Assembly: GCF_025963695.1 (NCBI RefSeq)
Contig: NZ_JAOQAH010000030.1
Location: forward strand, 2,396-66,395
DNA length: 64,000 bases
Reading direction: 5' to 3'
From: Segetibacter sp.
GTDB taxonomy: Bacteria; Bacteroidota; Bacteroidia; Chitinophagales; Chitinophagaceae
Positions 2,716 through 29,241 of the stretch are shown piece after piece. The position numbers and the translations under genes are program-made. The notes beneath the pieces are model-generated. The model was not told the origin of the DNA. It saw only the letters and a program-made list of their open reading frames with translations, and did not search any database. Each line of letters starts with the position of its first letter. The first letter of the stretch is position 1.

Positions 2716-3074
2716 AAAACATATATTAAAGATTATAGAAGAATAATTTTAAGGCTGTGTTGTATCGATTAGTAGGATAATTGTACGATATTGAATAAGG
2801 ACTAATAACTGTTCGCTAAGGGCGATAGGGCAATGAAAGCTTACCTTCTAAACGGCAAAATGTTCTTTGAATAGGAAGAACCTTTCTTAGATAGTTAAAA
2901 TAAATACAGATTAGAAACGGGGAGCAAAATGATCTTCTAAAAAGATAATAGTGGCATTAAAAGACCTAAAAGAAAGGTTGCTGATTGGAGTAGCATTTAA
3001 ATCTAATTAAAGAGAATAAAGGTTACAGACTTGGAAAAGTATGAAGTAAGACGCCTAGAGAAATAGAACGGGTC

Positions 3075-4382
3075 TTACCAACATAAACCTTCATAATTTG
3101 GCAAGTACTCAATTTCGTTTATACGAACCAGGTCTATGACAGCTTCCTTTTCTTTTAATAGGTGCCCGTATTTTGCTGCATCAAAATTTTTATGGTTTAT
3201 AACTACTACGTCATTTTGTTTTATTGCCCTTTTAAGATCATTACTTATTAATGAAGATAAATGAGGTAAGCGTTCATTTATGTAAGCTTTGTTAGCACCA
3301 ATAAGTTTTGAAAGGCGAACATTTTCATCGTAGATAGTAACATGATATCCTTTACCAATAAGCATTTCTGCAAGGTCAACAGAAGGGCTGTACCTTAAAT
3401 CATCTGTGCCTTCTTTAAAGCTTAGACCCACAAAACAAATATTTCTTTTACCCGTCTTTTCTACCATTTCAAAAGCTATCTTCTTTTGGTTCTCATTTGA
3501 GTTATTTATACATCCTAAAACAGGAGTAGACAAGTAGTTATCGTGTCCTAATGTCACAAATCCTTTCAAGTCTTTTGGGAGACAAGAACCTCCATAAGCA
3601 AATCCCGGCTTAAAATAAGAAGTTGAAATATTTAAGCGTGTATCCTTACAAAACAGTTCCATTACCTTATGAGAGTCGATGGAGACTGCTTTACATACAT
3701 TCCCTACTTCGTTTGCAAAAGCTATCTTTAAGGCATGATAAGAATTGTTTACATATTTGATTATCTCTGCAATTTTAATATCCGTAATTTCTATAGGTGC
3801 ATCTAAACCCCGATAGATAGAAGCTACTTTTTCGATGGCATAGTCATGGTCTCCGCCAATAACAGTAATTGAAGGATGATAATAATCGCGTATTGCAAAA
3901 CCTTCTCTTAAAAACTCAGGATTTGATACTACAGAAAAGCTCGTTCCTCTTTTCTTATGTGAGCTCTCTTCCATAATTTCTCCGAACTTTTGATTTGTTC
4001 CGGGCAACACAGTACTTCTTATAACTACTGTATGGAAGGTTGTCTTTTTTTGTATTGCCTTACCTACCTGCTCCGCCGTTTTGTAGATGTATGAAAGATC
4101 TAAATGGCCATGAGGAGATGATGGCGTACCTACACAAATTATAGTTAAATCAGTATTGTTAACCGCCTCATCCGCACAGGTTGTTGCGGATATTCTACCT
4201 TGTTCATATCCATCCTTAATTATGACATCAATGTCCTTTTCTAAAATTGTTGGCTTTCCGCTATTAATAAGTTCTACTTTAAAAGAACTGACATCAACTC
4301 CGATGACATCGTGGCCATTCTTCGCAAGACATCCCAAACTCACACATCCAACATATCCTAATCCGAAAACTGAAATTCTCAT
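3075..4382 (-). CDS. algD: GDP-mannose 6-dehydrogenase-like nucleotide-sugar dehydrogenase (AlgD-like)
   Basis: MRISVFGLGYVG Rossmann start, GGSCLPKD catalytic Cys motif, GLSFKEGTDDLR, AEMLIGKGY, GANKAYI and C-terminal EGLCW. These match Pseudomonas AlgD as I recall it better than generic Ugd. Confidence 0.8.
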   Translation of the reverse strand: MRISVFGLGYVGCVSLGCLAKNGHDVIGVDVSSFKVELINSGKPTILEKDIDVIIKDGYEQGRISATTCADEAVNNTDLTIICVGTPSSPHGHLDLSYIYKTAEQVGKAIQKKTTFHTVVIRSTVLPGTNQKFGEIMEESSHKKRGTSFSVVSNPEFLREGFAIRDYYHPSITVIGGDHDYAIEKVASIYRGLDAPIEITDIKIAEIIKYVNNSYHALKIAFANEVGNVCKAVSIDSHKVMELFCKDTRLNISTSYFKPGFAYGGSCLPKDLKGFVTLGHDNYLSTPVLGCINNSNENQKKIAFEMVEKTGKRNICFVGLSFKEGTDDLRYSPSVDLAEMLIGKGYHVTIYDENVRLSKLIGANKAYINERLPHLSSLISNDLKRAIKQNDVVVINHKNFDAAKYGHLLKEKEAVIDLVRINEIEYLPNYEGLCW

Positions 4383-5434
4383 TTTATAACGATTTTATAC
4401 TGGTTAATTTGATGTCTCATAAATTCCGTCATATCATCCCAACTTTCAAGCAATCCGTTTCTTACTTTTATTTGCCCCCCTTTATCAAAGGGGTCGTCAA
4501 TTGTTTGGTTGATACATGTGACTGCTTCTTCACCCCGAAGGTGTTTTAGTATTCCCTGTTTCATCAGTAATTCATTCGCTTTCATTTTTCTTATGCCACA
4601 ATAAACACTTGGAATACCTAACATCGCACCTTCTCTTGCCATACTGTCTCCTGAAGACACTACTAGTTTAGAGTAATAAATTAAGGAGTGAATGTCTTCG
4701 ACAGGCTCTTCGAGAATAGTCCAGGATTTAGGAAATCTATTAGTAATACTTTTATCTTCTAATGATAAAACCACTTTAGTATTTGCATTTATCTTTTCGC
4801 AAAAGGAACTGATAATAGCATCCTCCTGGTTATAGTAATTGAATGACTTATTGCTTACTTCCCTAATAAAAACATATTCATTAGGTGTCAGACTGTACTT
4901 GTTGAGGGTGGTGGAAACCGGATTAAATCTTCTTGGGCTCAGGTAACTCCATTCTTTAAGACAATTGAAAATAGAAGTCTTGTTTGTCTTCTCCACTATT
5001 GGCGGAAAGAAGAGCTGATTTGAAAACCTTTCGTTTAACCTATTAACTCCTTTTCTTTCAGGATCATCGTAAAATTGAATAATAGGAGTGCCAGAAATTT
5101 TACAGGCGATTGCAAGTGGAATGCTGCTGGCAGCTATACAAATGTCGTATTTGTTTTTCCTGATAAGATTTAAAAAAGTAAACATCCTTCTTACATTGCC
5201 ATGCCACAGGATAGATAACCTGGTGCCCTTGCTGCTACCAACAGGAATTGTATTGAAGCCAGCGTATTCAGTTTCGATAATGTTAGGCAGTTTGCCTCTT
5301 TTCAGGTAGGAAATTGTAACTTCCCAATTTTCATCTTTTAACTGTTTTGATAGTCCTTTAAACAAGTTAAGTTGAGCAGGATGTTTGATATCAATCAATA
5401 CCTTTTCTTTACGCCTTCTTACAAGTATGCCCAT
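4379..5434 (-). CDS. DUF354 family protein (predicted GT-B fold glycosyltransferase-like)
   Basis: IDIKHPAQLNLFK N-terminal motif, VVSSGDSMAREGAMLGIPSVY C-terminal motif. Stop overlaps the algD start (ATGA). Start taken at ATG 5434 (ORF extends to 5476). Confidence 0.75.
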   Translation of the reverse strand: MGILVRRRKEKVLIDIKHPAQLNLFKGLSKQLKDENWEVTISYLKRGKLPNIIETEYAGFNTIPVGSSKGTRLSILWHGNVRRMFTFLNLIRKNKYDICIAASSIPLAIACKISGTPIIQFYDDPERKGVNRLNERFSNQLFFPPIVEKTNKTSIFNCLKEWSYLSPRRFNPVSTTLNKYSLTPNEYVFIREVSNKSFNYYNQEDAIISSFCEKINANTKVVLSLEDKSITNRFPKSWTILEEPVEDIHSLIYYSKLVVSSGDSMAREGAMLGIPSVYCGIRKMKANELLMKQGILKHLRGEEAVTCINQTIDDPFDKGGQIKVRNGLLESWDDMTEFMRHQINQYKIVIK

Positions 5435-5505
5435 AACATTTGTTTTAATTTTTGACCTTGTTTTAAATGCTAACATTCGAGGAATTGAAGCAAGAAAATT
5501 AGATG

Positions 5506-6477
5506 CTAGCCAATAGCTGTTTTATATATCCCAATAATTCTGTGTGCAATAGTCTCTGAATCTAAGCCTAGACTCAAAATCCTTTGCTTTCCCTTAGTTC
5601 TCCCATTTGTCTTTGAAAAGTGTAGAGCGCACTCTATTTTTTTTGCAAAATCATCCACATCAAAACTAGATACATAACAACCTTCTGTATCCCCCAAAAC
5701 CCATTTTACATCTCCCATATCTGTCGCAACAATCGGGCAATTGCATGCCATGGCTTCTTTTACCACATTAGGTGAACCTTCCATTAAAGATGGAACTACA
5801 AGAACACTTGCGTTGCTTAAATATTTTGGTATTTCTTCATGCGCAACAGGATAGGGATTTATAAGTTCAACATTAGGCAAACGTAATTTTGAAACAGCAG
5901 CTTCTGCCAGTGGATAATTTTTTCTAATATCGTTTTTGTTTCCCAGAAATAAGACGCTTTCTTTTTCGTTTATTACACTTGAACTTTCATTTCCGACAAC
6001 TCTTTCTGCATCGAACTTTTGCTTGTTAATTCCGTTAGGAATAATCCAAGACTTATGCTTTAGATATACATATTTTTCTATGTTCTTAGACTTAGAAATA
6101 ATTGCTTTTACAAAAGGCTGTATCAGCAAAGTACAAAAAGTAGAGATTCTGCTACTTAAACGAACTTTGTTTACACCAATGTACTCGCCGTAGGCATCAT
6201 TGCCCAATAGTGATAAGACAACAGGTGTTTTACCAGCGCCTATTACTGCTGCCCACCCGGAATAAGTAAAGTGGGCATGAATGAGATCATACTTATTTTT
6301 CTTCCGATGTTTTCTAATTTGCATACCCGCCTTCAAGTAGCCTAAGAAGCCCTTACCAACGACCGGGAAATAATCTACTATAATTCCTTGTTCTTTCAAC
6401 GACTCGCCTTGTTCCTTGATAAAAGGAATAATCTCAAAGCTTTTAATATTACCACCACACACAAAAAGTACTCTCAT
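5506..6477 (-). CDS. Glycosyltransferase family 4
   Basis: YDLIHAHF, IIPNGIN, VPSLMEGSPNVVKEAMACNCPIVATDMG (EX7E). Start taken at MRVLFV. Confidence 0.9.
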   Translation of the reverse strand: MRVLFVCGGNIKSFEIIPFIKEQGESLKEQGIIVDYFPVVGKGFLGYLKAGMQIRKHRKKNKYDLIHAHFTYSGWAAVIGAGKTPVVLSLLGNDAYGEYIGVNKVRLSSRISTFCTLLIQPFVKAIISKSKNIEKYVYLKHKSWIIPNGINKQKFDAERVVGNESSSVINEKESVLFLGNKNDIRKNYPLAEAAVSKLRLPNVELINPYPVAHEEIPKYLSNASVLVVPSLMEGSPNVVKEAMACNCPIVATDMGDVKWVLGDTEGCYVSSFDVDDFAKKIECALHFSKTNGRTKGKQRILSLGLDSETIAHRIIGIYKTAIG

Positions 6478-6582
6478 AATTAAATATTGAATTTTTAAAA
6501 AGAAACTTCGCCTCATTTTAGACATGATAATACCGCACGTATACGAGGAGGGTCGGAAGCGACATAAATCACACTTTGGATT

Positions 6583-8469
6583 TTATAATACCGCTAATAC
6601 CGAGGGAACACTTTTATTTATCTTATTGGTCAACAGCAGAGTGCTAATTATTAAAATAAGTTCTTTTTCTTTATTACCAAAGCGCGTATGTTCATCAACG
6701 AGGTGTAAAATTGCTCCCCTATCAAATATTTTCCAGAAGAATTGGTTATCATTTCTTATAAGCCATTCTTTAATATCGCTCGAACTCTTTCTAATATACT
6801 CTTTTGATGGGCCGTGAAAAGCCAGCTTCTTACGGTTGATCATTTCTTCAGGAAGGTAGTCGCGGGCGAAGGCTTTATGTATAATCTTACCATTCCTAAA
6901 ACTATATCGATATTCCCTCGGCAGTGATTCGATAAATTCTACCAATTCATTGTCAAGCATAGGAACACGGCATTCTAAGCCGAAATGCATTGTAATTTTA
7001 TCAGTATAGTTTAAAAGCGTTTCGGAGAGTTTTGTTCTCGTATCAAGATATGGAAAGAGGTCGCTACGATAAAGCGGAAGATTATTTTTACTTTTTAAAA
7101 CAGCATAATGATTACCTAGAGCGGAGTAGTATTTTGAAGACACTACTTCAACTTCATTTTTATTCATTAGCTTATTTAAAGCATGCTCTCCGAAAAGGCT
7201 ATTGAATTCAAAATAAGCATGTAGGTTACTTGAGGTTCCTACTGAAGAAAAAACTCGGCGTAAATCACGGTGTTTGATATATTTAGAACAAAACCGGAAA
7301 AGACGGGGTAAAATAGGAGCTTTAATTAAAAAATCAATAGCGGGCAAAGCTTTATACTTAGTGTAGCCGCCCAAAGGTTCATCCGCACCTTGACCACTCA
7401 AAACTACCTTTACTTTTGAAGCAGCTAATTTAGACAACGTGTACATTGGAAATATAGAACCCGTATCTGCCGGCTCTTCTATGATGTTTACAATGTGCTC
7501 AAACTCTTCAAAGAAATTACCAAACTTTACTTCTTCTGTATAATGCTCTAATTTAAGGTAAGCAGCAGTTTTACTTGCGCTTCCCCGCTCATCGAGTAAT
7601 TTATCGTCAAAGCCAACCGTGAAGCCTTTAATATTTTCCACTTTTGTTTTTGCAATAGCAGCTATAAGCGAAGAGTCAACACCTCCACTAAGAAAAATGC
7701 CGACTTCAACATCCGAAAGTAATTGTCTTTCCACAGCCTTTTCAAGAAGTTGTCCATACTCAACAACCAATTGTTTTTTAGTGCCATTAATCAATCCTTT
7801 CTTCTTTGGCAAATCAGCATAATAGCTTCTCGAAATTGAAAGTGTATCATTTAAATCAATGGTAATTAGTTGCCCTGGCTCAACCTTAAATATATCCTTT
7901 AACAATGTCTGGGGCGGGGGGACATGTCGAAATTGAAGGGCAGTTGTAACTGCACCAATAGAATACCGCGGCTCTACTTCGCTTATAATAGTTCTTAGCT
8001 CTGAAGAGAAGAGAAATTCATTATCCTTGAAGTAATAATACAAAGGCTTTACGCCGAAACGGTCTCGTGCCAGGTAAATCTTCTTGTCGATAATATCTAC
8101 ATAGGCAAAACTGAAAATCCCGTTAAGTCTTGCCAATGAATTAGGGGTACACTCATTGCGACAAAAATTTACAAGAGTTTCTGTATCAGAATGACCTTTA
8201 AAATGCACGTTGCTAAGAGTACTGCGAAGCTGGACGTGATTATAGATTTCGCCATTAAAAATAATGACCCCCTGTTCATCCGACGACATCATTGGCTGGC
8301 TCCCATTGCTGCTTAAATCCAATATTGACAGACGGTGATGAAATAATTGAACCGAACAAGAGTCAATCCTAAACTTTTTCAGACCGAATTCATCTGGACC
8401 ACGGTGGCGGATAAGCTGAACTACTTTATTAGATAAATTATGATTTATACTACCAACTATTCCGCACAT
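6583..8469 (-). CDS. asnB: Asparagine synthase (glutamine-hydrolysing)-like amidotransferase
   Basis: N-terminal MCGIVG (Ntn Cys), HRGPD, RLSILDLS, FNGEIYNH, ARDRFGVKPLYY, LSGGVDSS, LSGQGADE, ECRVPMLD. Confidence 0.93.
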   Translation of the reverse strand: MCGIVGSINHNLSNKVVQLIRHRGPDEFGLKKFRIDSCSVQLFHHRLSILDLSSNGSQPMMSSDEQGVIIFNGEIYNHVQLRSTLSNVHFKGHSDTETLVNFCRNECTPNSLARLNGIFSFAYVDIIDKKIYLARDRFGVKPLYYYFKDNEFLFSSELRTIISEVEPRYSIGAVTTALQFRHVPPPQTLLKDIFKVEPGQLITIDLNDTLSISRSYYADLPKKKGLINGTKKQLVVEYGQLLEKAVERQLLSDVEVGIFLSGGVDSSLIAAIAKTKVENIKGFTVGFDDKLLDERGSASKTAAYLKLEHYTEEVKFGNFFEEFEHIVNIIEEPADTGSIFPMYTLSKLAASKVKVVLSGQGADEPLGGYTKYKALPAIDFLIKAPILPRLFRFCSKYIKHRDLRRVFSSVGTSSNLHAYFEFNSLFGEHALNKLMNKNEVEVVSSKYYSALGNHYAVLKSKNNLPLYRSDLFPYLDTRTKLSETLLNYTDKITMHFGLECRVPMLDNELVEFIESLPREYRYSFRNGKIIHKAFARDYLPEEMINRKKLAFHGPSKEYIRKSSSDIKEWLIRNDNQFFWKIFDRGAILHLVDEHTRFGNKEKELILIISTLLLTNKINKSVPSVLAVL

Positions 8470-8558
8470 GGCTTAAAGATTTGGGTTATTAAAAAATTGA
8501 CTTTATTAGAATATGATTTCTTTGACTGTGGGGGCAAAAATGCAAGTACAAGGTTCAA

Positions 8559-9818
8559 CTAACCCGCGTATACCACCGCGTGCTCATCTTCTTCGGCCTG
8601 GGGCACTTCCGAATATTGTTCGCCATATTTTAATGCTGATAATAATAGCATAAGGAGGGGGGGGAAACTAAGCGTTCCAATAAAACGTCCAGGTATCAAG
8701 ACGATCAAAAAGTTAAATAATAGTGGATAAAACAATTTCTTGTTTTCTTGCGACATTATATTATTTCCTTTAAAAAAGTAATGGCTAAAAAACAAAATGA
8801 AAAGAAACATACCTACTATTCCTGTACTAAAAATTATCATGTTAATATCACTATGGATAGGCCTGTCTCTACCAAAATATCTCGTACCGAAAGCATAAGT
8901 ATCAAATAAATTCACTCCAAATAGTATCTCGGCAGGATCCCTTTTCTTTCTATGATAATCAATTAAGTAAAAGGTTTCTAAATATCTCCCTTCCTCCTCC
9001 AAACTATTTAGATTTTCTATGCGCTCCCTTTTCTCAAGCTGCCCCATAAGGCGTTCCTGGTAGAGGGGAAAGCTAATGATCAAAGCGGATATTAAGATAA
9101 AAACCAGCATCAACATCTTTAAGAATAACTTTTTATTGAAGAGCGCATAAATCATTATTGCTGCAGCAAGCATTAATAAGGTAGTTCGCCTTGTACTTAA
9201 TAAGAGCATACAAACATTTATGAGAATAAATGATACATCAACTACTTGAAGATACCGGTTTTTGTCTTTGTCAGTAAGAGCATAATGAATAGCTAAAAAA
9301 ACGATGATAGGAATGACATATAATCTTGAAGTAATTAGAAAACCAGTAGAGAATGCATCAGAATAAAACCCGGCTATACCTACTTTATTTGCATAGATTA
9401 TATAAAGTGGCAGTGCAATCAACAGTAGCCGGTTGTACTTCTTAAAACCTGTAAGCACATTATTGCTTTTACCGAAGTGAATGCCTACAGGAATCATTAA
9501 TAATGTAATAATTACAGGCAATACACTTTTTGCAGTTATAATCTGATCCCCGGGGTTTAGTAGCCATAACAAAAGGAGATACGACACCAGAACAACAAAA
9601 ATAAATTCTATGTGCTTTACTATTCTATACTTTATAATGTAGAACAGCACCAACGTTAACGGTACTAAGTAACGTAAAACTGCAAAAATTTTATCGTCTT
9701 TATAAAAGCCATCAAACATGTCGTAGAAGACAAAAAATAACATTAGCAGGTATGGGAATGGCCTGGTATCAATTAAAAATGATACTATTAAAAGAAGGGC
9801 TAAAACAATTAATATCAT
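8559..9818 (-). CDS. Wzy-like polysaccharide polymerase / O-antigen ligase-like membrane protein
   Basis: About ten hydrophobic helices, LLSTRRT loop, periplasmic loop with R..Y and H (RPIHSD), position within a wzx-containing locus. Confidence 0.7.
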   Translation of the reverse strand: MILIVLALLLIVSFLIDTRPFPYLLMLFFVFYDMFDGFYKDDKIFAVLRYLVPLTLVLFYIIKYRIVKHIEFIFVVLVSYLLLLWLLNPGDQIITAKSVLPVIITLLMIPVGIHFGKSNNVLTGFKKYNRLLLIALPLYIIYANKVGIAGFYSDAFSTGFLITSRLYVIPIIVFLAIHYALTDKDKNRYLQVVDVSFILINVCMLLLSTRRTTLLMLAAAIMIYALFNKKLFLKMLMLVFILISALIISFPLYQERLMGQLEKRERIENLNSLEEEGRYLETFYLIDYHRKKRDPAEILFGVNLFDTYAFGTRYFGRDRPIHSDINMIIFSTGIVGMFLFILFFSHYFFKGNNIMSQENKKLFYPLLFNFLIVLIPGRFIGTLSFPPLLMLLLSALKYGEQYSEVPQAEEDEHAVVYAG

Positions 9819-9827
9819 ACAGGCGTT

Positions 9828-10574
9828 TTAGTTGAACTGGTAATTCATTTTACAATGCTCGGCAACCAGCGCTGCGTTTCTTTCGGGGCTGTTGTTGCCT
9901 GAGAACAAGTATTTCTGCACGCATTCAGAACTCTCGAAAAGCTGGAACAGGTAAGAGGTATATTTTTCCAATTCTTGTATCCTTTTCTCTGGTGCCATTC
10001 GGTCAAACCTGCTTGTCTTTGTAGGCCGCATCTCTATTCTTTCTGCTGCAGTGTTTACATCAATATCGAAATAGTAAATGACATCAGTTCTAAAATAAAA
10101 CCTCGATAAACTTTTGCTTATACTGCTATACGACTTGGCCCTAAATATAGTAGCTGACCACATCTCTTGGATAGTCCATTGATCAAGCAACACAACATCA
10201 ATTTTTCCGTTCTTTTTTATTTGTTCTAGGGCAAGGTCAAAAAGTGTTAATCTAATGTATCTGTAAATTGAATTTGTGCTATAAATTCTGTTATTCGCGA
10301 GAGATATCATATAGAGTATTAAAGATTGACCTCTACATAAGACAAGCTTTAATACCAGTATACACTTTTCAATAAACGCCATTTTTCTTATATAGTCCTT
10401 CATATCCTGCCATGTACATACCGTGTAGCCATTACTCTCAAGCAAGCCCGATAAACATTTGCAACTTGTAGTCTTACCAGCACCAGGAGGACCTACAAAT
10501 TCAATTGTATACGCTTTTTGCTTTAAGATCTTTTTGCCGTGAGGCCTGTCTACAAACTTGTAATTGTTAAGCAT
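9828..10574 (-). CDS. P-loop nucleoside-monophosphate-kinase-like protein (thymidylate-kinase-like fold)
   Basis: IEFVGPPGAGKTT Walker A, VLLDQW, TDVIYYFDIDVNTAAERIEMR lid-like segment. ATG 10574 preferred over TTG 10622. Confidence 0.7.
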   Translation of the reverse strand: MLNNYKFVDRPHGKKILKQKAYTIEFVGPPGAGKTTSCKCLSGLLESNGYTVCTWQDMKDYIRKMAFIEKCILVLKLVLCRGQSLILYMISLANNRIYSTNSIYRYIRLTLFDLALEQIKKNGKIDVVLLDQWTIQEMWSATIFRAKSYSSISKSLSRFYFRTDVIYYFDIDVNTAAERIEMRPTKTSRFDRMAPEKRIQELEKYTSYLFQLFESSECVQKYLFSGNNSPERNAALVAEHCKMNYQFN

Positions 10575-10587
10575 TGTAATAGATCTA

Positions 10588-12144
10588 TTAGAGATAAGAA
10601 GCCCATATTTCTTTTTTGGCAATAAAAAGCACCTCTTCTAAGGGTTGAGCTGCATCTACACTAACAACCTTGCATTTTTCTGAAACTTTCAGGTTTCTAA
10701 AACCTGCTATTTTTTTCTGAAGCGTTTCCAGGGAATGTTCTCCTGGCTTGCGGGCTTCTACTACTTCTGCACCAGCAATTAATTTAAACAATACGTCCGG
10801 GGGGCTGGCTTCTGCCAAGGCATAAGCACGGGCTTCTTTTTTAGCTACAGCCCTAAAAAGGATATTGCGGGATGTAGAAAGATGATTAAGCAGAGGACCG
10901 TCATTATAAGCCATCACTTGATTCTGGGGAAACCTATCGCATATTACAAGCATTCCTTTCTTTTTGGCCACCTGCATCAAAGCAAGATTATTGCGTTTTT
11001 CATTGGCCACAATAAGTGCCTCTATACACTTGTAAACATTTGCAATAAATCCCTTTCTTGCGCCTGAAACTTTTTTGCACGATTCTTTGCTTTGCTTTTG
11101 AGACTGATTCCTGACGAACAATTTCTTAAAACCAAAAAGTATCTTTCTTGGTAATGATACTCTTCCGGCTCCCCTACCAAAATAAATTTTATAAACGTCG
11201 AGCTTTTTTTCGAACGTCTTATGCAGGTTAGCAGTAACTGTTGATTTACCTGATCCGTCTGCTCCCACTACCCCGATAATAAGACCCCCGCGCGGGTTAA
11301 TTCTATGTGACATTATGGGGCGATTAAGAAGCCTGGACGTTTTTCTATAGAATTTTACACTTACCTCTCTGTACCACCGCCTGGCGAGAGCGCTTAAGGG
11401 CGTGAACTGCCTGTATTTGCTAAATTCTTTTTTAATTATTACAGATAACTTAAGCAGTTCAATACGATTAAATTTACCGAAGACAATGAAAAACACGGGC
11501 AGGTAATTGGTGAATATGCCTTTAAGTATTGTTTCTATATCCTCATTTGAACACCGCTGTTTCAACCAATTATATTCCCTGATAAGATTTGCTGAATAGT
11601 ATATTTTGTTTTTCAGATACATCTTAATCACGTCCCTGTTCCTTATTTTTAAAGCTTCTCTTATAAAAAGAAGTATTAATTCCATATTAGGATCAGAACG
11701 GTATATCCCGAATTCATCATCCCAAACCCTACCTTCCAAAATCTTATTATGCAGATCGAGTTGATAGCTTTTTAAATAAGGTTCGCCCAGGGTTAACCTG
11801 TAATGTGAATGCAAATGAACCACCTTACCGGAATGTAAATCCAACCCAATAAAATCTTCTATATCCTTGTACTGTTTTTGCCTGATCGAATCAAATTTCT
11901 TGAAGCCTAACTTCATCAACAGAACTTCCAGTTCGTCTTTCTGGTTTTCATTAAAGAGTATGTCAAGATCTGTATCAGCGGTCATTGAAGCATCTAAATG
12001 TTCATTACTTTTCCAATGACAATAGCTGATCCTTTGGGCATGAAGCAACGTTAGAAGATCATCTATTAATGGTACTTTCCTGACCGGGAGATTACTTGCA
12101 GAAATAGTCGTGGACGGATTTGGTGTAAATGTTATTTCATTCAT
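10588..12144 (-). CDS. Fusion of an N-terminal Pol-beta-type nucleotidyltransferase-like domain and a C-terminal thymidylate-kinase-like domain
   Basis: WKSNEHL...DTDLDIL (DxD) at the N-terminus; GVVGADGSGKST P-loop, CDRFP and PPDVLFKL in the C-terminal half. Start overlaps the wzx stop (ATGA). Confidence 0.7.
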   Translation of the reverse strand: MNEITFTPNPSTTISASNLPVRKVPLIDDLLTLLHAQRISYCHWKSNEHLDASMTADTDLDILFNENQKDELEVLLMKLGFKKFDSIRQKQYKDIEDFIGLDLHSGKVVHLHSHYRLTLGEPYLKSYQLDLHNKILEGRVWDDEFGIYRSDPNMELILLFIREALKIRNRDVIKMYLKNKIYYSANLIREYNWLKQRCSNEDIETILKGIFTNYLPVFFIVFGKFNRIELLKLSVIIKKEFSKYRQFTPLSALARRWYREVSVKFYRKTSRLLNRPIMSHRINPRGGLIIGVVGADGSGKSTVTANLHKTFEKKLDVYKIYFGRGAGRVSLPRKILFGFKKLFVRNQSQKQSKESCKKVSGARKGFIANVYKCIEALIVANEKRNNLALMQVAKKKGMLVICDRFPQNQVMAYNDGPLLNHLSTSRNILFRAVAKKEARAYALAEASPPDVLFKLIAGAEVVEARKPGEHSLETLQKKIAGFRNLKVSEKCKVVSVDAAQPLEEVLFIAKKEIWASYL

Positions 12145-13634
12145 ACAACTTGAACAGATATTTTTTTAAACCGTTTAAGAATGAGTTTTTCAACTAATGC
12201 TTTATGGTCACTCCTGATAAAAAAACTTGGGAATAACCCAATGACTAAAAACAATAAAACCATTACTCCTACTCCGGTGCACAATAGAGTTACATACAAG
12301 GTGTTGAATTGCCGGCTTATAGTAACAATGAAATAACTAAAGACACCTGTTGTTATTCCTAAAAGAATTCCGTGAGTATGAGCCTTAACCAGGTCGAGCC
12401 AAGTACTACCAATCAGTTTGATACTTAATTGACTCATCATTAAAAAGTTGCCTACTAAAGTTAACGCTACACCCCAGGCTACACCATTAAGACCCCAAAA
12501 ATGTCCGATATATGAGCTTATGAACACTGCTCCTGCGTATATCAATTGTCTCCATGCCCTTCTGTAAACCGCACCGGTTGCCCTGGCAAGAGAGTCACTC
12601 ATTTTATAACTCATTCTGAAAAGGAGACTGCAAGCAAGTATTCTAAATGGATTTATTACCTCTGTCCATTGTGGGCCTAACAATACTAGTATGATTTCGG
12701 GAGCCAGAAATACAAACAAGACACTGATAGGAATTGCAATCAATGCAATAAGGCTAGTTCCTGTCAAATAAGCTTTCATAAGCTTTTGTTTATCGTCCTG
12801 CACTTTTGACATTGCAGGAAACAATACTTTGTCTAATGTATTACCGAAAAGACTTGAGGGCATAACCATGAACTGATAAGCACGTCCGTAAATACCTAAT
12901 GAAGCAGCCCCAAGTGTTCTTCCTACAACCAGGTTATCGCCTTGAACAGCTAAGTAATTTCCTATTCTTGCAAGCGTATGCCCCCCACCAAAACGTATTA
13001 ATTCTTTGAATGCGCTATAGTTAAATCGCGGACGCTTTGAGAACGGTTGAACAATCATCACTAAAGCGGCATATAAAACGGCTTGGGATATATTTGCAAT
13101 AACCAGGGCCCATACACCCATACCTAAATATCCTAAGCTTATACCAACCGCTCCGTAACCAACAGCATAAGATATAACGTCAAGGGCAGCAATTACTTTA
13201 AACTTCATATTGCGCTGCATCTGTGCCTGGCCTATAAGAGTAATTGAATCGACAAAGAAAACTATTGAAACAGCCCTTAGTACAGGAGCCAGCCCCTCCA
13301 TACGAAAAAAAACTTCCAGTACAGGAGCGCCGAGCAGCAAGACGCCGGCAAAAAGAAGACCCATGCACAAGGAAATCGTAAAGCCTGTAGTTAGGTGCCT
13401 GTCTTCCAATTCCTTTCGTTGTACTATAGCGGGACCCACCCCCATCTGTGTAAACAACTTTGAGAACTCAACTATAATTATAGCTATACCGGCTAAGCCA
13501 AACTCCTTTGGACTTATAAGACGGGCTAAAACTGCAAGCACCCCTATTTTCAGAAACACCTGAATACCACTTGCAGAAAGCAAATAAATGAACCCGGAAA
13601 AAGTGCGACTAGTGAGTTTATGATCTGGGGTCAT
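12141..13634 (-). CDS. wzx: Wzx flippase (PST/MOP family, WzxC-like)
   Basis: VLARLISPKEFGL, QMGVGPAIVQ, DNLVVGRTLGAASLGIYGRAY, VLFPAMSKVQDD; 12-14 TM helices. Confidence 0.9.
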   Translation of the reverse strand: MTPDHKLTSRTFSGFIYLLSASGIQVFLKIGVLAVLARLISPKEFGLAGIAIIIVEFSKLFTQMGVGPAIVQRKELEDRHLTTGFTISLCMGLLFAGVLLLGAPVLEVFFRMEGLAPVLRAVSIVFFVDSITLIGQAQMQRNMKFKVIAALDVISYAVGYGAVGISLGYLGMGVWALVIANISQAVLYAALVMIVQPFSKRPRFNYSAFKELIRFGGGHTLARIGNYLAVQGDNLVVGRTLGAASLGIYGRAYQFMVMPSSLFGNTLDKVLFPAMSKVQDDKQKLMKAYLTGTSLIALIAIPISVLFVFLAPEIILVLLGPQWTEVINPFRILACSLLFRMSYKMSDSLARATGAVYRRAWRQLIYAGAVFISSYIGHFWGLNGVAWGVALTLVGNFLMMSQLSIKLIGSTWLDLVKAHTHGILLGITTGVFSYFIVTISRQFNTLYVTLLCTGVGVMVLLFLVIGLFPSFFIRSDHKALVEKLILKRFKKISVQVV

Positions 13635-13757
13635 GCGGTCATGGCTTTTATAACAGTTTAATTAAAGGATGGTGATAAGTTGATAAGGTTACTACTAATA
13701 AAAAACTGATCTTTTATGAAAGCTTATTTATTAAGGTGCATTATTCCATTAGCGTTC

Positions 13758-14843
13758 TTAAGCATTTGCAAGCATTGCCGTTGCTTCTTCTTCAACCCCG
13801 TAATAGCTTTTATACCAATCAATGAACCTTTTTAATCCGCTTTGTATTGTAGTCTCAGGCTTGTAATTAAACTTCTTTATCAAATCATCCACATTCGCCC
13901 AGGTGGCAATTACATCACCGGGCTGCATTCCTTTCATTTCTATTCTTGCTTTTTTGCCTATATTTTTTTCGAGCTCCTTTATGAAGACCATCAACTCTAC
14001 AGGTTTATTATTTCCTATGTTGTAAACAGAGTATGGGGCAATGGATGAAGAAGGACCTGGTTGTTTACCATTCCATTTTTTGTTGGAGGTAGCAGGTTTC
14101 TCAAGTACATTAACTATACCTTCTACTATATCATCGATATAGGTAAAATCTCTTTTCATTTTACCATAATTGAAAACCGGGATAGGCTTGTCCGCCAATA
14201 TAGAATCAGTAAAAAGGAAATAAGCCATGTCCGGCCGGCCCCATGGGCCATATACTGTAAAAAAGCGCAGCCCTGTTGTAGGTAAATGGTACAGGTAGCT
14301 GTACGAATGAGCCATTAATTCATTGGCTTTTTTTGTAGCAGCATAAAGTGAAACCGGGTGATTAGTGTTATGCTCAACAGAGAATGGTATTTGTTCATTT
14401 AAACCATAAACGCTTGAAGAACTTGCATAAATTAAATGCTTAACCTTATTGTGTCGGCAAACCTCCAACAGATTAAGAAAGCCTACAAGGTTAGATTGTA
14501 TATAGGCGTCTGGATTTAATATTGAATACCTCACTCCTGCTTGTGCTGCAAGGTTAATAACAACATCAAAATTATTTTTTTTACAAAATGCCATTAACTC
14601 CCTTTTATCTTCGAGATTTAATTTAATAAACCTGTAGAGTTTATATTTGGTGCTTCTCACTTCTTTATTCCAAGCAATTTCTGTTGTATCAATTCCAGTT
14701 TCATTCAGACGTGCATATTTTAGGTTGACGTCATAGTAGTTGTTTATATTATCCAGACCGACTACTTCGTGTTCTTCTTTTAGCAAGGCAATGCTTAAAT
14801 GAAAGCCAATAAAGCCCGCACTTCCGGTAACTAATATCTTCAT
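13758..14843 (-). CDS. NAD-dependent epimerase, UDP-glucuronate 4-epimerase-like
   Basis: MKILVTGSAGFIG, NLAAQAGVRYS, YASSSSVYG, YAATK (YxxxK), LRFFTVYGPWGRPDMA, MQPGDVIATWA. Confidence 0.9.
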   Translation of the reverse strand: MKILVTGSAGFIGFHLSIALLKEEHEVVGLDNINNYYDVNLKYARLNETGIDTTEIAWNKEVRSTKYKLYRFIKLNLEDKRELMAFCKKNNFDVVINLAAQAGVRYSILNPDAYIQSNLVGFLNLLEVCRHNKVKHLIYASSSSVYGLNEQIPFSVEHNTNHPVSLYAATKKANELMAHSYSYLYHLPTTGLRFFTVYGPWGRPDMAYFLFTDSILADKPIPVFNYGKMKRDFTYIDDIVEGIVNVLEKPATSNKKWNGKQPGPSSSIAPYSVYNIGNNKPVELMVFIKELEKNIGKKARIEMKGMQPGDVIATWANVDDLIKKFNYKPETTIQSGLKRFIDWYKSYYGVEEEATAMLANA

Positions 14844-14930
14844 CTGAATGCTTTTTAATTTGTTTAAATTGAAGAGCAATCTCATCTCTTGATTGTCTTG
14901 TTAGGGTAGAATGAAAGAGTAAACAAATAT

Positions 14931-15476
14931 TTAATGGAAACTGGACACGTGTCTTTGGGCACCTGCTCTTTGCGACCTTGCAAGAACCGTTACATTAGAT
15001 TTTTCAACTTCTGCTGTCATTTGATAACCTAAAGCAGGAAGAACTACTGTAACTGAATTACTCTTGATGGAGATTATACTTCCTTCACGTTTATTTAATA
15101 ATCCACTTTCAATACGAACCAAATCATTAACGCCAATATCCAGCTTTTCCAATTTAACGTTGGTGTGTTCATCTAAAAATTTTTTTATAATTTCAATCTC
15201 TACATCTCTTATAACCGCAGGTGTATTGGACCAACTGACAAATTTGACCACCCCCTCAATTTCTTTAACCTTAATCATTTCCCGCTCATCTACCTTGACG
15301 AAAACGTAGCAAGAAAACAGAGGTTCTCGAACTATTTTTTTACGATCACTCCATTGTCTTAATACGGAATTAAGAGGACAATAGACTGTTATATCTTGCC
15401 GGCTCAGGGTTTCAGCTATTTTCTTTTCCCACCTGGGCATGGTATAAATAGCAAACCAGTTCTTGCGTGTTAACAT
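14931..15476 (-). CDS. upxY: UpxY-family (NusG/RfaH paralogue) transcription antiterminator
   Basis: NWFAIYTMPRWEKK, RQWSDRKKIVREPLFSCYVFV, KOW-like VRIESGLLNKREG. Start taken at MLTRKNW. Confidence 0.88.
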   Translation of the reverse strand: MLTRKNWFAIYTMPRWEKKIAETLSRQDITVYCPLNSVLRQWSDRKKIVREPLFSCYVFVKVDEREMIKVKEIEGVVKFVSWSNTPAVIRDVEIEIIKKFLDEHTNVKLEKLDIGVNDLVRIESGLLNKREGSIISIKSNSVTVVLPALGYQMTAEVEKSNVTVLARSQRAGAQRHVSSFH

Positions 15477-15593
15477 AATTATTTTCTTTAATTTAGTGGT
15501 TCTTTTAAGAGAATAAGCTTCGCTTAGCTGGGCTACAAGTGGCGCCAGGTTAAGGTTCAACAAAATCTTGCAGTATGTAGGCGGCTGAATAGT

Positions 15594-15716
15594 GGAAGCG
15601 TGTACAAACGATGCGTTACGCTTCCCATTTCCTATCGCCGTTGTTCAACACCGATCTATCAGTTCCCTCAGCTTTTTTGCATTTAAGGGATCTTTATCTT
15701 AAAGAATGGGCTTCGC
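15594..15716 (-). promoter_or_regulatory. Candidate ops-like pause element GGGCGAAGCCC plus a downstream leader hairpin in front of upxY
   Basis: Minus-strand GCGAAGC at 15716-15710 inside GGGC-GAA-GCCC. 8-bp inverted repeat GGAAGCGT (15594-15601) / ACGCTTCC (15618-15625). Both lie in the ~310-nt wzc-upxY spacer. Confidence 0.45.
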
Positions 15717-15787
15717 CCAACCTAGCTACAGTTGGTAGTTAAGCAGAAAGTTTAGAACGAAAATTTTAGGGAAAAGGAAAAAAGTGT

Positions 15788-18130
15788 TTAAACGTTACCA
15801 GCCGCGCTTCGCCCTTCATAAACGCTGTCACTATATACCTTTTTAAGTCCATAACCGAACCCACTACCATATCTCTTCCTTAAGAAACCCCTAGGCTTAA
15901 TTCCATTAAAAACAATAGATACGTTGCGAAGAGCATTTACTTTATTACTTGCATCTAATAGTTCTACCATCGCTTTTGTTGTGAAATCATGTCTTACAAC
16001 AAATAAAGTGGAGCTACAATATTCAGAAAGTATATAAGCATCAGTAACAGGATCAATGGGGCTAGAATCAATGATTATAAAATCAAAAATGTTGTTGAGA
16101 TAGTCAAATAGTTTACTCAAATCCGAATTCAACAGCAACTCAGTGGGATTACTTCTGGAGTTGCCTGCAGGTATCAAAAAGAGTTCCGAGTGATCGGTTT
16201 TGTAAATAATGTCATCAATTTCTTGTTCACTTCTTTCCAAAAAATCCGCAATTCCTTTATCGACTGATTTTTTATACCAGCCTGAGGTTTTAGGATTTCG
16301 CAAATCGAAATCGATTAATACTACCTTTCTACCTGAGTTAGCAATACTTAATGCAAGGTTATTACTGATAAAAGTCTTCCCTTCAGAAGCAATGCTTGAG
16401 GTAACAAGTATCCTTTTATTTTGCAGTTGCCTGTTGTTTAAACCTAGATTAGCTCTAAGGTGTCGGAATTGCTCAATTGATGCAGTCTGTTTAATAGTAT
16501 TATTTATGATAAAAGAATTTTTCTTCCCCTTAACTCTAATTACTTCGGCCACTATTGGAGCGTTTGTAATAGTTTCAATGTCGGTACGAAATAAAATTTT
16601 GTTTGTTAGCAATTCTTTTCCACTTATAAAAACTAGCCCCGAAATCATTGAAAGCGCAAATGCCCCTAAGAATATTAGCCACACCTTTGGGCTGACGGGC
16701 AGAAATGATGCATCCGGGTGATCAATAATTCTACTATCTGCAACAGTAGCTGCATTTGCTAATGCTGTTTCCTCTCTCTTCTGCAATAAGAAGGAATAAG
16801 CCGCATTTTTTATAGTTTGTTGTCGGCTTATATTCAACAAATCTCTTTCCTTTCCGGGGATTGATTGAAGCATAGAATTGTATGTGCCGGTGCTTGCACT
16901 TAAATTGCTTTTTCTTGCGTGCACGCTTACCCTTTGGTTTTGGATATTTTCCAAAATCGTCGGCTTCATTTTGTCAATTTCATTTCGCAGAGAAAACATT
17001 ATTGGATTTCCTCCTGGTATCGTCTTTCTTAATCTTTCATATTGCATTTGGGTATCGTAGTACCTTTGTAATAATTGCGCAAGCAAGGGATCTTTTAACC
17101 CAGTTACAGAAGGTACTATGCCTATTTGATTATCCTTGGCCTGCACATATTTTTCAACTTCATTTAACATTGCCATCTCCATATTTACCTCGGTCATTTT
17201 ACGGTCGTTATCACCTACATTCTGTAAGTAAAGTCGTCCTTGCTCACCTATATCAACAACTCCTTTGTCAGTCTTAAATTTTCGCAATTGATTTTCAATT
17301 GAATCGAGCTCTCTAACTACGTATTTAATGCGGCTTTCCACAAATGAAAGTGTATTCGAGGTCAAAAGGTTTTTGTCATTTATTGCAGCCTGGTTATACT
17401 CACTAATAAGAAGGTTTAATATCTCTTTACCTCGTTGAGTTACTTCATCCTTAATAGTTAAATGAATTACAGACGAAAGCTTATTTATCGGAGATACATT
17501 TAGATTTAGAATAAGGCGATTAAGAGCTTGTTTTGGCGGAACCAGAGAAAAGTATAAACGGTTGGTAGTTTGTGTTTTAAAGTATCGGTTAATATTAAAT
17601 TTGGCTGTCCCAAATGAAGTAGTAACGAATTGATTTAAAGGGTAGGTTTTGTCCCCTATATCAACAGTCTTATTTACTTCGTTAAAAGTAAAATCAACTC
17701 TTTCTACAACTTCCACTATCATATTTGGATCGGCTAATTCGACCGTAACGGGTGACGAAGTAAAAGCGGAATAGGAAACTAAAGGTGTGGCCTCAAAAAC
17801 AGGAGCATAAAGACTTAAACTATTTACCACCTTCTTTAGTAATTCTCTAGATTGAATAACTTCAATTTCATTTTCGACAATCTTATTAGAAGAATAAATA
17901 TTTAGAGCATCTAGTATTTTCGAATCATCAGCTCCTTTTTTCTCGTCTTTAATTAGTATATCAGCAGATATTTCATAGACGGGTTTGGTGAGGTATAGGT
18001 AAAAACTTCCGGCGACTAAGAATACCACTAGTAGTAGGGCAAACAGGGGCCAGTAAGGTAAATAACTGTATACTAATCGCTCAACAACTCCCTTTTCCTT
18101 CTTTGAAATAACCGGCTTTTTCGCGTCCAT
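15788..18130 (-). CDS. wzc: Wzc-type polysaccharide co-polymerase / tyrosine autokinase
   Basis: Wzz-like N-terminal TM, coiled periplasmic region, VTSSIASEGKTF Walker A, VVLIDFDLR, IIIDSSP, Tyr/Gly tail RYGSGFGYG. Start taken at MDAKK. Confidence 0.93.
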   Translation of the reverse strand: MDAKKPVISKKEKGVVERLVYSYLPYWPLFALLLVVFLVAGSFYLYLTKPVYEISADILIKDEKKGADDSKILDALNIYSSNKIVENEIEVIQSRELLKKVVNSLSLYAPVFEATPLVSYSAFTSSPVTVELADPNMIVEVVERVDFTFNEVNKTVDIGDKTYPLNQFVTTSFGTAKFNINRYFKTQTTNRLYFSLVPPKQALNRLILNLNVSPINKLSSVIHLTIKDEVTQRGKEILNLLISEYNQAAINDKNLLTSNTLSFVESRIKYVVRELDSIENQLRKFKTDKGVVDIGEQGRLYLQNVGDNDRKMTEVNMEMAMLNEVEKYVQAKDNQIGIVPSVTGLKDPLLAQLLQRYYDTQMQYERLRKTIPGGNPIMFSLRNEIDKMKPTILENIQNQRVSVHARKSNLSASTGTYNSMLQSIPGKERDLLNISRQQTIKNAAYSFLLQKREETALANAATVADSRIIDHPDASFLPVSPKVWLIFLGAFALSMISGLVFISGKELLTNKILFRTDIETITNAPIVAEVIRVKGKKNSFIINNTIKQTASIEQFRHLRANLGLNNRQLQNKRILVTSSIASEGKTFISNNLALSIANSGRKVVLIDFDLRNPKTSGWYKKSVDKGIADFLERSEQEIDDIIYKTDHSELFLIPAGNSRSNPTELLLNSDLSKLFDYLNNIFDFIIIDSSPIDPVTDAYILSEYCSSTLFVVRHDFTTKAMVELLDASNKVNALRNVSIVFNGIKPRGFLRKRYGSGFGYGLKKVYSDSVYEGRSAAGNV

Positions 18131-18147
18131 GTCGTTATATTTATAAA

Positions 18148-18933
18148 TTATCTGGTTAATCGATCTACCACAATTGCAATAAATGAGAGGCTGCTGATAA
18201 ACACAGGAAGCCATTGTTTCGTGGTACTGGCACTTGCCACCTTAGCTTCATTTGCCGCAACATATACTACATCATTTGACTTTAGATAGTAGTATGGAGA
18301 CGTCAATAATTCATTATCATTTAGATTAATTCGCTTTGCCACTCTCTTGCCTTCTTCGACTTCGTGTAGAATTAGAATGTTATCGCGTCTTGCGTATGGT
18401 GTCAGGTCGCCGGCAAGCCCTAAGGCTTCAAGGAGGGTAATTTTTTCGCTTGGCACATTAAACACTGATGGATGTATTACTTCACCCAGAACAGTCACTT
18501 TATAATTTAAATATCGAATGTCAACAACAGGATCAAACAAAAGATTTCTTTGTATTAATTCTCTGGTAATAATACTTTTCAACTGTTTTTTTGTTAAGCC
18601 TGCTGCTTTTATTCTTCCCAACATTGGAAACTGCAGGCTGCCGTCTTGATCTACTAAAAAGCCATTGCTTTGTGAGGCTGTACCTGCATTTACGCTGCCT
18701 TGAGAAGTTGTTTTAGCATATAAATTGAAGGGGACTGTAGCTTCAGCATTCACACTGCTTACAGAAATGCTCAAGATGTCATTTTTCTGAATTACCGGTT
18801 CGAGGTTTTCCGTCTTGTACTCGATTGTGCTATCAGCCAAATTATTAAAGTTTGTAGCCTTTCTTGTGTTAACACAAGATAAAAAGAGGGGTAAAAGAAA
18901 GAGCATAGCGCTGCATGAACGATGCGTAATCAT
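18148..18933 (-). CDS. wza: Wza-type polysaccharide export outer-membrane lipoprotein
   Basis: Lipobox LFLSC, IQKNDILSISV, VDQDGSLQFPMLGRIKAAG, VTVLGEV..P, TLLEALGLAGD (SLBB), C-terminal amphipathic helix. Confidence 0.92.
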   Translation of the reverse strand: MITHRSCSAMLFLLPLFLSCVNTRKATNFNNLADSTIEYKTENLEPVIQKNDILSISVSSVNAEATVPFNLYAKTTSQGSVNAGTASQSNGFLVDQDGSLQFPMLGRIKAAGLTKKQLKSIITRELIQRNLLFDPVVDIRYLNYKVTVLGEVIHPSVFNVPSEKITLLEALGLAGDLTPYARRDNILILHEVEEGKRVAKRINLNDNELLTSPYYYLKSNDVVYVAANEAKVASASTTKQWLPVFISSLSFIAIVVDRLTR

Positions 18934-24427: not shown

Positions 24428-24466
24428 ATATAAGTTCTAAAATTTAGTCGACATTAATTTTATCAA

Positions 24467-29220: not shown

Positions 29221-29241
29221 TATAAATTGAAGTGTTTAGCC

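Follow-up and report, generated by a model that had tools for sequence, protein, structure and literature searches.

A nucleotidyltransferase–kinase fusion and a second kinase between wzx and wzy of a Segetibacter polysaccharide locus: a candidate tailoring cassette

The window examined here is a stretch of 64,000 nucleotides from Segetibacter sp. (Chitinophagaceae; contig NZ_JAOQAH010000030.1, positions 2,396 to 66,395). Pfam matches identify a Wzx/Wzy-type polysaccharide locus at about 1333–18933 of the window, with all of its genes on the minus strand. Between the flippase and polymerase genes lie the two genes with which this report is concerned. The first, which we call FUS, is an open reading frame (ORF) at 10588–12144 (minus strand; stop codon at 10588–10590) encoding a 518-amino acid (aa) two-domain fusion protein. 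The second, KIN2, is an ORF at 9828–10574 (minus strand) encoding a stand-alone protein of 248 aa with a nucleoside monophosphate (NMP) kinase fold, identical to the database protein P0121. Together the two genes make up a conserved cassette encoding three catalytic domains, whose active sites all appear to be intact. Across genomes, this cassette is enriched beside, and sometimes fused to, proteins that handle the finished lipid-linked unit and late tailoring enzymes.

The locus is transcribed in the order wza (Poly_export), wzc (Wzz/GNVR/P-loop tyrosine-kinase type), a NusG/UpxY-like gene, a nucleoside diphosphate (NDP)-sugar epimerase gene, wzx, FUS, KIN2, a wzy-like gene, asnB, and then genes for a GT4 protein, a DUF354 protein, a UDP-sugar dehydrogenase and a Bac_transf phosphoglycosyl transferase. 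This gene order is also seen in loci L001–L020 of the comparison described below. The MOP-family flippase gene wzx (12141–13634, minus strand; PF13440, Polysacc_synt_3, E = 1.1e-85) ends in a 4-nt ATGA overlap with the FUS start (GTTGTATGAATG). The wzy-like gene (8559–9818, minus strand) encodes a polytopic membrane protein with a weak Wzy_C match (E = 7e-6, below the cut-off). It starts at 9818, leaving a 9-nt gap from the end of KIN2 at 9828, and it keeps its position after KIN2 in related loci. A sequence-only reading of the window had reported the ATGA overlap with wzx, the 9-nt gap to wzy, and the motifs DxD (here DLD), GADGSGKST, DRFP, PPD and GPPGAGKT; each of these lies where that reading put it. 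It was also correct in regarding FUS and KIN2 as foreign to the standard set of Wzx/Wzy components.

Homologues of FUS number 805 at E<=1e-3; the nearest one from outside, 82% identical, is that of the soil species Segetibacter aerophilus. KIN2 has thirty-two (32) close homologues. An AlphaFold2 model of FUS, built on an 87-sequence alignment, is confident (pLDDT 87.5, pTM 0.85), and the KIN2 model has a pLDDT of 85.4. Taken together, the many homologues, conserved motifs and confident models indicate that both are real genes and not chance ORFs. A TTG start for KIN2 at 10622 (ORF 9828–10622, 264 aa) was considered and set aside, since both the homologues and the database entry point to the ATG at 10574 instead. 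Scanning around the genes for promoter and terminator consensus sequences gave matches at chance level, using a consensus not suited to Bacteroidota.

The FUS model has three parts: an alpha/beta region (about residues 25–150), a helical bundle (152–273) and a P-loop domain (285–518). We refer to residues 20–273 (11326–12087, minus strand) as the N-domain and to residues 285–518 (10591–11292, minus strand) as the C-domain. Foldseek and hidden Markov model (HMM) comparisons place the C-domain among thymidylate-kinase-like P-loop kinases of the YghR/S/T type. Its translation contains a Walker A motif, GADGSGKST (G294–T302; 11239–11265, minus strand), a DRFP motif (D403–P406; 10927–10938, minus strand) that is the counterpart of thymidylate-kinase DR[YF] in an alignment to Staphylococcus aureus thymidylate kinase (TMK), a conserved N414-D415-G416-P417 after DRFP, a PPD motif (P448-P449-D450) and an RKP motif (10744–10752, minus strand). 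The protein as a whole is very basic (pI 9.7), and a basic disordered loop lies at 348–363 within the C-domain. Both features are compatible with action at an anionic membrane surface.

Searched against the PDB with Foldseek, the FUS model finds nothing but thymidylate or deoxycytidine kinases among its fifty best matches (top 50; target-normalised TM-scores 0.56–0.70), and the viral structure library BFVD gives the same kinase picture. The KIN2 model matches adenylate, thymidylate, UMP-CMP and deoxynucleoside kinases, and both models match many thymidylate kinases at a Foldseek probability of 1.0. The NMP-kinase fold that the sequence-only reading had assigned to the C-terminal half of FUS and to all of KIN2 is thus borne out. 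At the sequence level the relationship is remote: FUS and KIN2 score 24.7 and 25.1 bits against PF02223 (cut-off 27) and 22.8 and 24.4 bits against TIGR00041 (cut-off 83.25), and searches of both against PDB sequences returned sub-threshold thymidylate-kinase matches at most. Comparison with the PADLOC models of anti-phage defence systems gave P-loop matches only, at marginal E-values of 0.0009–0.016, and a defence role was accordingly dropped. KIN2 carries a P-loop, GPPGAGKT (10470–10493, minus strand), a D-Q-W motif and a lid, RIEMRPTKTSRFD. Residues conserved in a set of sixty-two (62) KIN2-like proteins are those of the P-loop together with D147, R195 and R199, counted along the 264-aa form. 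A distant paralogy links the KIN2-like proteins to the FUS C-domain (hhalign E 1e-5 to 2e-11).

S. aureus TMK (PDB 2CCG/4DWJ) shares its fold with the FUS C-domain and KIN2 (target-normalised TM-score 0.5–0.7) at about 20% identity, and its P-loop, DR[FY] motif and basic-residue lid are also found in the C-domain. Unlike TMK, the C-domain has a 60-residue helical/disordered insertion (about 325–395) and is fused to another domain. It has a Y-N pair where TMK has Y-Q, and Val379 is aligned to the thymine-stacking Phe of TMK. KIN2 has D-Q-W where thymidylate kinase has D-R-Y.

These folds raise the question of whether the two kinases simply recycle nucleotides, re-phosphorylating the UMP, UDP and other NMPs or NDPs released by the phosphoglycosyl transferase and glycosyltransferases, which would relieve product inhibition and feed nucleotide-sugar synthesis. 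The thymidylate, adenylate and UMP-CMP kinase folds would suit such a role, as would the source annotations of the homologues ('thymidylate kinase' or 'nucleoside/nucleotide kinase family') and the cassette's independence of any particular sugar set. We nevertheless consider local recycling very unlikely. Both proteins fall below the curated thymidylate-kinase cut-offs, the stacking Phe is replaced in FUS, and housekeeping kinases already do this job. Recycling also leaves unexplained the obligatory nucleotidyltransferase-fold domain of FUS and its fusions to Wzx, Wzy, sulfotransferase and methyltransferase proteins, both described below.

The key residues of the N-domain are YCHWKS (41–46), D59xD61, D102 and H110xH112xH114. 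D59-L-D61 (DLD; 11962–11970, minus strand, from the translation) is a putative metal-binding pair. In the model, the elements run helix 25–36, strand 41–43, helix 47–54, strand 60–64 (with D59xD61), helix 66–78, strand 82–86 and strand 95–102 (with D102). This is the element order of the DNA polymerase beta (Pol-beta) fold, namely strand-helix-strand with DxD and a third carboxylate on a later strand. The usual G[GS] of nucleotidyltransferases is replaced in FUS by the strand end C42-H43-W44-K45-S46. Family libraries gave no match for FUS residues 1–280, an N-domain profile had no match among PDB sequences, and the whole-FUS Foldseek searches of the PDB and BFVD returned kinase-domain matches only, with the N-domain not ranked.

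We then scanned fifty-four (54) N-domains from many phyla singly against Pfam, counting matches at E<=1. PF14907 (NTP_transf_5) was matched by 27 of the 54 (best E 9.2e-7) and PF10706 (aminoglycoside 2''-adenylyltransferase, ANT(2'')) by six (6/54). The N-domain of the window scores 13.1 bits against PF14907, under the gathering cut-off of 31.2. One relative, P0207 (730 aa; locus L084, 10001–12193), carries a second copy of the N-domain in addition to a full FUS, and it is this extra copy that passes the gathering score (36.1 versus 31.2). NTP_transf_5 and ANT(2'') have a Pol-beta-type fold with DxD and a third Asp, as the FUS N-domain appears to have. We therefore treat the N-domain as a putative divergent relative of these two families, short of confirmed membership. 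The element order, the DxD and third Asp and the two sets of Pfam matches all favour the nucleotidyltransferase-like N-terminus that the sequence-only reading had proposed. ANT(2'') modifies a sugar hydroxyl.

Conservation was assessed in seventy-one (71) full-length relatives from many phyla, at roughly 25–80% identity. N-domain residues conserved in >=85% of these are Y41, C42, H43, W44, K45, S46, N47, D59, D61, D102, H110, H112, H114, G120, K125, E155, R162, K166 and E190. In the C-domain the same threshold is reached by G294, D296, G297, G299, K300, S301, D403, R404, P406, D415, G416, P417, E437, P449, D450 and R465. K45, D59, D61, D102, H110, G294, K300, D403, R404, P406 and R465 are invariant or nearly so: for example, D61 is kept in 71/71 relatives, D59 in 70/71, D403 in 65/71, R404 in 69/71 and P406 in 71/71. 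The conservation of these residues indicates that both putative active sites of FUS are under purifying selection.

With clusters formed at 50% identity, a search with the N-domain retrieved 1,630 representatives at E<=1e-3, a number that falls to 1,145 at E<=1e-10. Of the best 150 matches, most are 480–540 aa long with the domain at the N-terminus, so among these the fusion is the standard architecture. We also scanned one genome per GTDB species, which identified 140 encoded relatives. Seventy-eight (78) loci were kept with 10-kb flanks and, together with the window, gave seventy-nine (79) loci for a neighbourhood comparison in which 1,065 ORFs were clustered. The loci come from Bacteroidota, Chloroflexota, Acidobacteriota, Actinomycetota, Gemmatimonadota, Planctomycetota and Nitrospirota. 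Further carriers belong to Proteobacteria, Cyanobacteria (Calothrix), Spirochaetota and Thermotogota, and one is a Halobacteriales metagenome-assembled genome. Several loci (L002, L013, L018, L021, L072) have tandem duplicate FUS genes.

One or more hallmarks of polysaccharide assembly are present in 74/79 loci, and two or more in 60/79; the hallmarks counted were a glycosyltransferase, a MOP flippase, a Wzy_C protein, a phosphoglycosyl transferase, Wzc, Wza and Wzt. Homologues of FUS thus lie mostly within polysaccharide loci, and their DxD and P-loop residues are conserved. On both counts the candidate tailoring pathway put forward by the sequence-only reading is supported in its general form. 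The conserved two-gene cassette, its linkage and fusion to flippases and the YghR/S/T membership of the kinase domain, set out in what follows, go beyond that reading.

KIN2-like genes make up a family of four P-loop clusters (about 250–270 aa), joined by iterated HMM and full-length hhalign comparisons (E 6e-9 to 4e-26), and are found in 58/79 loci. A KIN2-like gene directly adjoins FUS in 33 of the 53 loci with both, where shuffled gene order would give 10.9 (maximum of 20 in 2000 shuffles). Likewise, a flippase adjoins FUS in 33/49 loci (9.2 expected, maximum of 18 in 2000 shuffles). Among loci below about 40% identity, the flippase is adjacent in 12/28 (5.4 expected) and the KIN2-like gene in 20/29 (6.6 expected). 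The same arrangement is found on a Chelatococcus plasmid, where an XrtA-associated exopolysaccharide locus carries a full FUS, then a KIN2-like gene ('AAA family ATPase'), then a flippase gene.

In some Bacteroidota loci, those of Agriterribacter and Pedobacter included, the place of KIN2 downstream of FUS is taken by a family of about 280 aa that has no Pfam match (L027 6096–6932, L029 11551–12399, L030 11500–12297, L031 5274–6137, and also L035). Its gene directly follows FUS in L029, L030 and L035, and follows an intervening AsnB-like gene in L027 and L031. The family has a conserved 'GKHRAYALSALGY' motif, which seems to resemble ParB/sulfiredoxin proteins, and it may be a non-homologous replacement for KIN2.

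All of the longer family proteins that we examined contain a complete FUS. Fusions of Wzx and FUS are found in Rufibacter sp. DG15C (1025 aa, WP_066508813.1), in Nibribacter koreensis (a 1029-aa ORF) and in a separate cluster 36% identical to the query (1038 aa). Wzy_C is joined to FUS in locus L083 (915 aa), where a KIN2-like gene and then wzx come next. A Sulfotransfer_3–FUS fusion (825 aa) lies in locus L082 with a KIN2-like gene downstream. Finally, Methyltransf_11 is joined to FUS in a 43-member cluster from Gemmatimonadales (823 aa; L079–L081, gene at 10001–12472).

The kinase domain of FUS also has relatives in E. coli. It is about 30% identical to YghT (tblastn, plasmid records), and the FUS HMM matches three K-12 proteins, YghT (1.5e-35), YghR (1.7e-33) and YghS (4.9e-31), over HMM positions 270–502. 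On these matches, the FUS kinase domain belongs to the YghR/YghS/YghT family. The three proteins (b2984–b2986) are full-length homologues of the C-domain and share its motifs G-x-DG-[ST]-GKST, DR[FY]PQ, DGP and RKPDH; they are annotated as 'putative ATP-binding proteins', with the PGAP names 'dTMP kinase' or 'nucleoside/nucleotide kinase family protein'. Like FUS, which adjoins wzx in the window, they adjoin a MOP flippase gene, yghQ. Unlike FUS, they are stand-alone proteins of about 230–250 aa that lack the nucleotidyltransferase-fold domain. Such a domain was not found near yghR/S/T either, and a 274-aa hypothetical protein beside yghQ, considered as a split-off N-domain, had no match to the FUS N-domain.

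The neighbourhood in E. coli contains serine-palmitoyltransferase, acyl carrier protein, acyl-AMP-ligase and LptF/G-like genes, with no glycosyltransferases, Wzy or Wzc. In K-12, yghQ is truncated by IS5 (L085, NC_000913.3 3131341–3134823); the intact region of O157:H7 LSU61 (L087) adds an epimerase/dehydratase-family protein and a YtfJ-family gene to the lipid genes. The region is present in 4,744 of the 5,426 complete E. coli genomes, and its gene content suggests a cluster for lipid synthesis and export that includes three orphan kinases. Literature searches on yghQRST and on sphingolipid clusters of E. coli turned up no functional study. A mention of 'yghS' in a paper on haloarchaeal exopolysaccharide turned out to be a strain name, YGHS18.

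The position of YghR/S/T beside YghQ, in a cluster of lipid genes without glycosyltransferases, suggests that these kinases follow the flippase and not sugar chemistry. One hypothesis is then that FUS and KIN2 are nucleotide-dependent regulatory or energising subunits, belonging to the MOP flippase or to the assembly complex, that gate or license flipping and carry out no chemistry on the glycan. Adjacency to flippases well above chance and the Wzx–FUS and Wzy_C–FUS fusions in separate lineages are consistent with this hypothesis. Against it, at least 20 loci have FUS without a recognisable flippase, several of them with a Wzt ABC transporter instead, and the methyltransferase–FUS fusion lies outside any transport context. 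Moreover, NMP-kinase-fold proteins are phosphotransferases and not motors, and a second kind of catalysis is implied by the nucleotidyltransferase triad, which is fully conserved. We judge a purely assembly-partner role to be quite unlikely.

Across the 79 loci, no family other than the KIN2-like one consistently accompanies FUS. This absence implies that the cassette must contain its own transferase and that its chemistry must use common cellular donors (ATP or other nucleoside triphosphates (NTPs), possibly nucleotide sugars). It also bears on the partners and analogies suggested by the sequence-only reading. That reading had enlisted the neighbouring AsnB, a glutamine-hydrolysing asparagine-synthase homologue (6583–8469, minus strand, between wzy and GT4; TIGR01536, 391 bits), as a pathway partner. 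AsnB occurs in only 7/79 loci and, among close relatives, only in the window and the Segetibacter aerophilus locus, so it is better seen as an insertion specific to these two. It probably amidates a uronic acid made by the UDP-sugar dehydrogenase and epimerase of the locus and is unrelated to the cassette. The proposed parallel with Campylobacter O-methyl-phosphoramidate (MeOPN) synthesis gains no specific support, as no glutamine kinase, cytidylyltransferase or amidohydrolase accompanies the cassette in the 79 loci, although the Cj1415–Cj1418 sequences were not themselves compared. Nor does the LicCD-type analogy find support in family searches: neither FUS nor KIN2 (Pfam/NCBIfam, E<=0.1) nor any of the 54 N-domains (Pfam, E<=1) matched the LicA, LicC or LicD families.

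The one relevant experimental precedent comes from lasso peptides. In the pseudomycoidin cluster, the kinase PsmK and its partner PsmN add a hexose to a kinase-made phosphate (PMC6993621; PMC9266682). PsmN, which falls in an 'uncharacterised nucleotidyltransferase' family, has been modelled on ANT(2''); it needs the phosphate installed by PsmK, and its DxD mutant is inactive (PMC6993621). The reaction catalysed by PsmN itself is unsettled (PMC6993621; PMC9266682). As in FUS and KIN2, a nucleotidyltransferase is partnered with a kinase, but PsmK is HPr-kinase-like and separate, whereas the FUS kinase has an NMP-kinase fold and is fused to the nucleotidyltransferase domain. The substrates also differ, since PsmN acts on a peptide and FUS presumably acts on a glycan or lipid-linked intermediate.

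Two glycan systems share a concept with the cassette. With WbdD, the kinase and methyltransferase chain terminator of E. coli O9a, as with phosphocholine decoration by LicA/LicC/LicD, cytoplasmic tailoring that involves a kinase adds a phosphate-based group to a lipid-linked glycan. The WbdD kinase has a protein-kinase fold, and LicA is a choline kinase. The parallel with WbdD is extended by the methyltransferase–FUS fusion and by loci in which FUS occurs with Wzt transporters bearing a Wzt_C domain, but the window locus has no methyltransferase and uses Wzx/Wzy.

We tentatively favour the view, to which we give somewhat less than an even chance, that FUS and KIN2 are an ATP/NTP-driven cytoplasmic tailoring cassette by which the lipid-linked repeat unit gains a phosphate-linked substituent. 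In favour of this view are the folds and conserved catalytic residues, the pairing of FUS with KIN2-like genes, the glycan setting of the loci, the adjacency and fusions to flippases and other late-step proteins, and the position of YghR/S/T beside YghQ. The two kinases would transfer phosphate from ATP, either to the repeat unit while it is carried on undecaprenyl diphosphate on the inner face of the membrane or to a small, nucleotide-like molecule from which the substituent is made. The FUS kinase may extend a phosphomonoester instead of a hydroxyl, because DR[FY] and the lid arginines, which bind the acceptor phosphate in thymidylate kinase, are kept. After the kinases, the nucleotidyltransferase-fold domain would form a phosphodiester or pyrophosphate bond, a step for which PsmN is a precedent. 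The cap, a sugar or a group derived from a nucleotide, would be placed on the phosphate or on a sugar hydroxyl. The modified unit would be flipped by the adjacent Wzx and polymerised by Wzy, and the end product would be a polysaccharide bearing a phosphate-containing substituent.

Several points weigh against this tailoring view. The phosphate substituent is a prediction and not an observation, and no polysaccharide structure is known from any carrier. The fold proposed for the N-domain follows from weak profile matches and model topology. The membership of PsmN in PF14907 is an assumption. The literature searched held no functional study of PF14907, of thymidylate-kinase-like genes in polysaccharide clusters, or of P-loop kinases with lipid-linked units as substrates. 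Because the loci are related by phylogeny, fewer independent events lie behind the adjacency counts than the numbers suggest. A KIN2-like gene was not seen within 10 kb in 21/79 loci, partly because of short contigs and crude ORF calling. In addition, the methyltransferase–FUS fusion is found amid PAS/GAF histidine-kinase and response-regulator genes, outside a glycan locus and without KIN2.

Two further objections concern the substrate. In structure, both kinases are closest to enzymes whose substrates are nucleotides or nucleosides and not sugars or lipids. The putative acceptor-side motifs (DRFPQ, NDGP) stay conserved from locus to locus even though the sets of glycosyltransferases differ considerably. 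Conservation regardless of the sugar set favours a generic, small or shared substrate over a variable sugar. These observations would fit a cassette that acts on small molecules only, building a nucleotide-activated or 3'-phosphorylated donor whose group is placed by a separate transferase. The donor could be an NDP-X compound or a cofactor resembling 3'-phosphoadenosine 5'-phosphosulfate (PAPS), as in PAPS synthase or the Campylobacter MeOPN pathway. The thymidylate-kinase-like DR[FY] and Y-N motifs kept in the FUS kinase domain are in line with such donor synthesis, and so are the sulfotransferase directly upstream of FUS in four Chloroflexota loci and the single sulfotransferase–FUS fusion. 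Thymidylate kinase and PF14907 genes also flank the phosphoenolpyruvate (PEP) mutase gene in a phosphonate gene-cluster family (PMC8942020), an observation that we count for the tailoring view as well. The PEP mutase motif is absent from all 78 genome loci, so no phosphonate link is seen in them.

On balance we find donor synthesis unlikely. No dedicated transferase family accompanies the cassette, and most loci, including the window, are without a sulfotransferase. Because sulfotransferases occur in 6/79 loci, we keep a PAPS-synthase-like reading only as one form of donor synthesis. We know of no Pol-beta-fold enzyme that makes sugar or sulfate nucleotides, and the Wzx and Wzy_C fusions point to a membrane-bound intermediate and not to a soluble pool. 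The four Chloroflexota loci (L040, L042, L050, L054), in which FUS and a KIN2-like gene come directly after the sulfotransferase gene and three to four further Sulfotransfer_3 genes are present, are probably sulfated-polysaccharide loci.

A broader form of the tailoring view would also take in the E. coli proteins. FUS, KIN2 and YghR/S/T might represent an unrecognised, phylum-spanning class of flippase-coupled phosphotransferases. In this class, NMP-kinase-fold enzymes would phosphorylate lipid-linked envelope precursors, and an NTP_transf_5-type domain would form a phosphodiester or pyrophosphate cap that licenses export by the MOP flippase. We regard this generalisation as rather doubtful. 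If it is true, the unusual cap would be a modification new to bacterial polysaccharides, and yghQRST of E. coli would gain a first function.

Phosphate-based substituents alter the charge, antigenicity, recognition by phages and lectins, and material properties of polysaccharides. Known routes to them are the Stealth-type hexose-phosphate transferases, the LicD family and WbdD. The cassette, if the tailoring view is right, would be a further route built from different folds. The FUS and KIN2 families are known so far only as unannotated 'thymidylate kinase-like' or hypothetical proteins, and the literature searched seems to contain no description of the architecture, the cassette or the flippase coupling. 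The cassette connects three uncharacterised sets of proteins: Pfam NTP_transf_5, of which PsmN is presumably a member and then the only one studied; the E. coli K-12 orphans YghR/S/T; and the flippase YghQ. The E. coli link provides a concrete, testable hypothesis in a model organism.

Other features were noted elsewhere in the window. An ORF of 411 aa (19354–20589, minus strand) without a Pfam match is kept just upstream of wza in eight related Bacteroidota loci (cluster c17) and may be a locus-specific regulator. Adjoining the polysaccharide locus are two tandem SusD/SusC-like pairs (546 and 1005 aa, 561 and 1064 aa) at 22787–32436 (minus strand). A tRNA-Ser(tga) gene lies at 32996–33081, and a double-domain KaiC homologue (PF06745, 3.8e-106) is encoded at 40334–42061 (minus strand). 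Farther along, at 46464–49280 (minus strand), is a gene for a large PAS histidine kinase with an N-terminal CZB zinc-binding domain.

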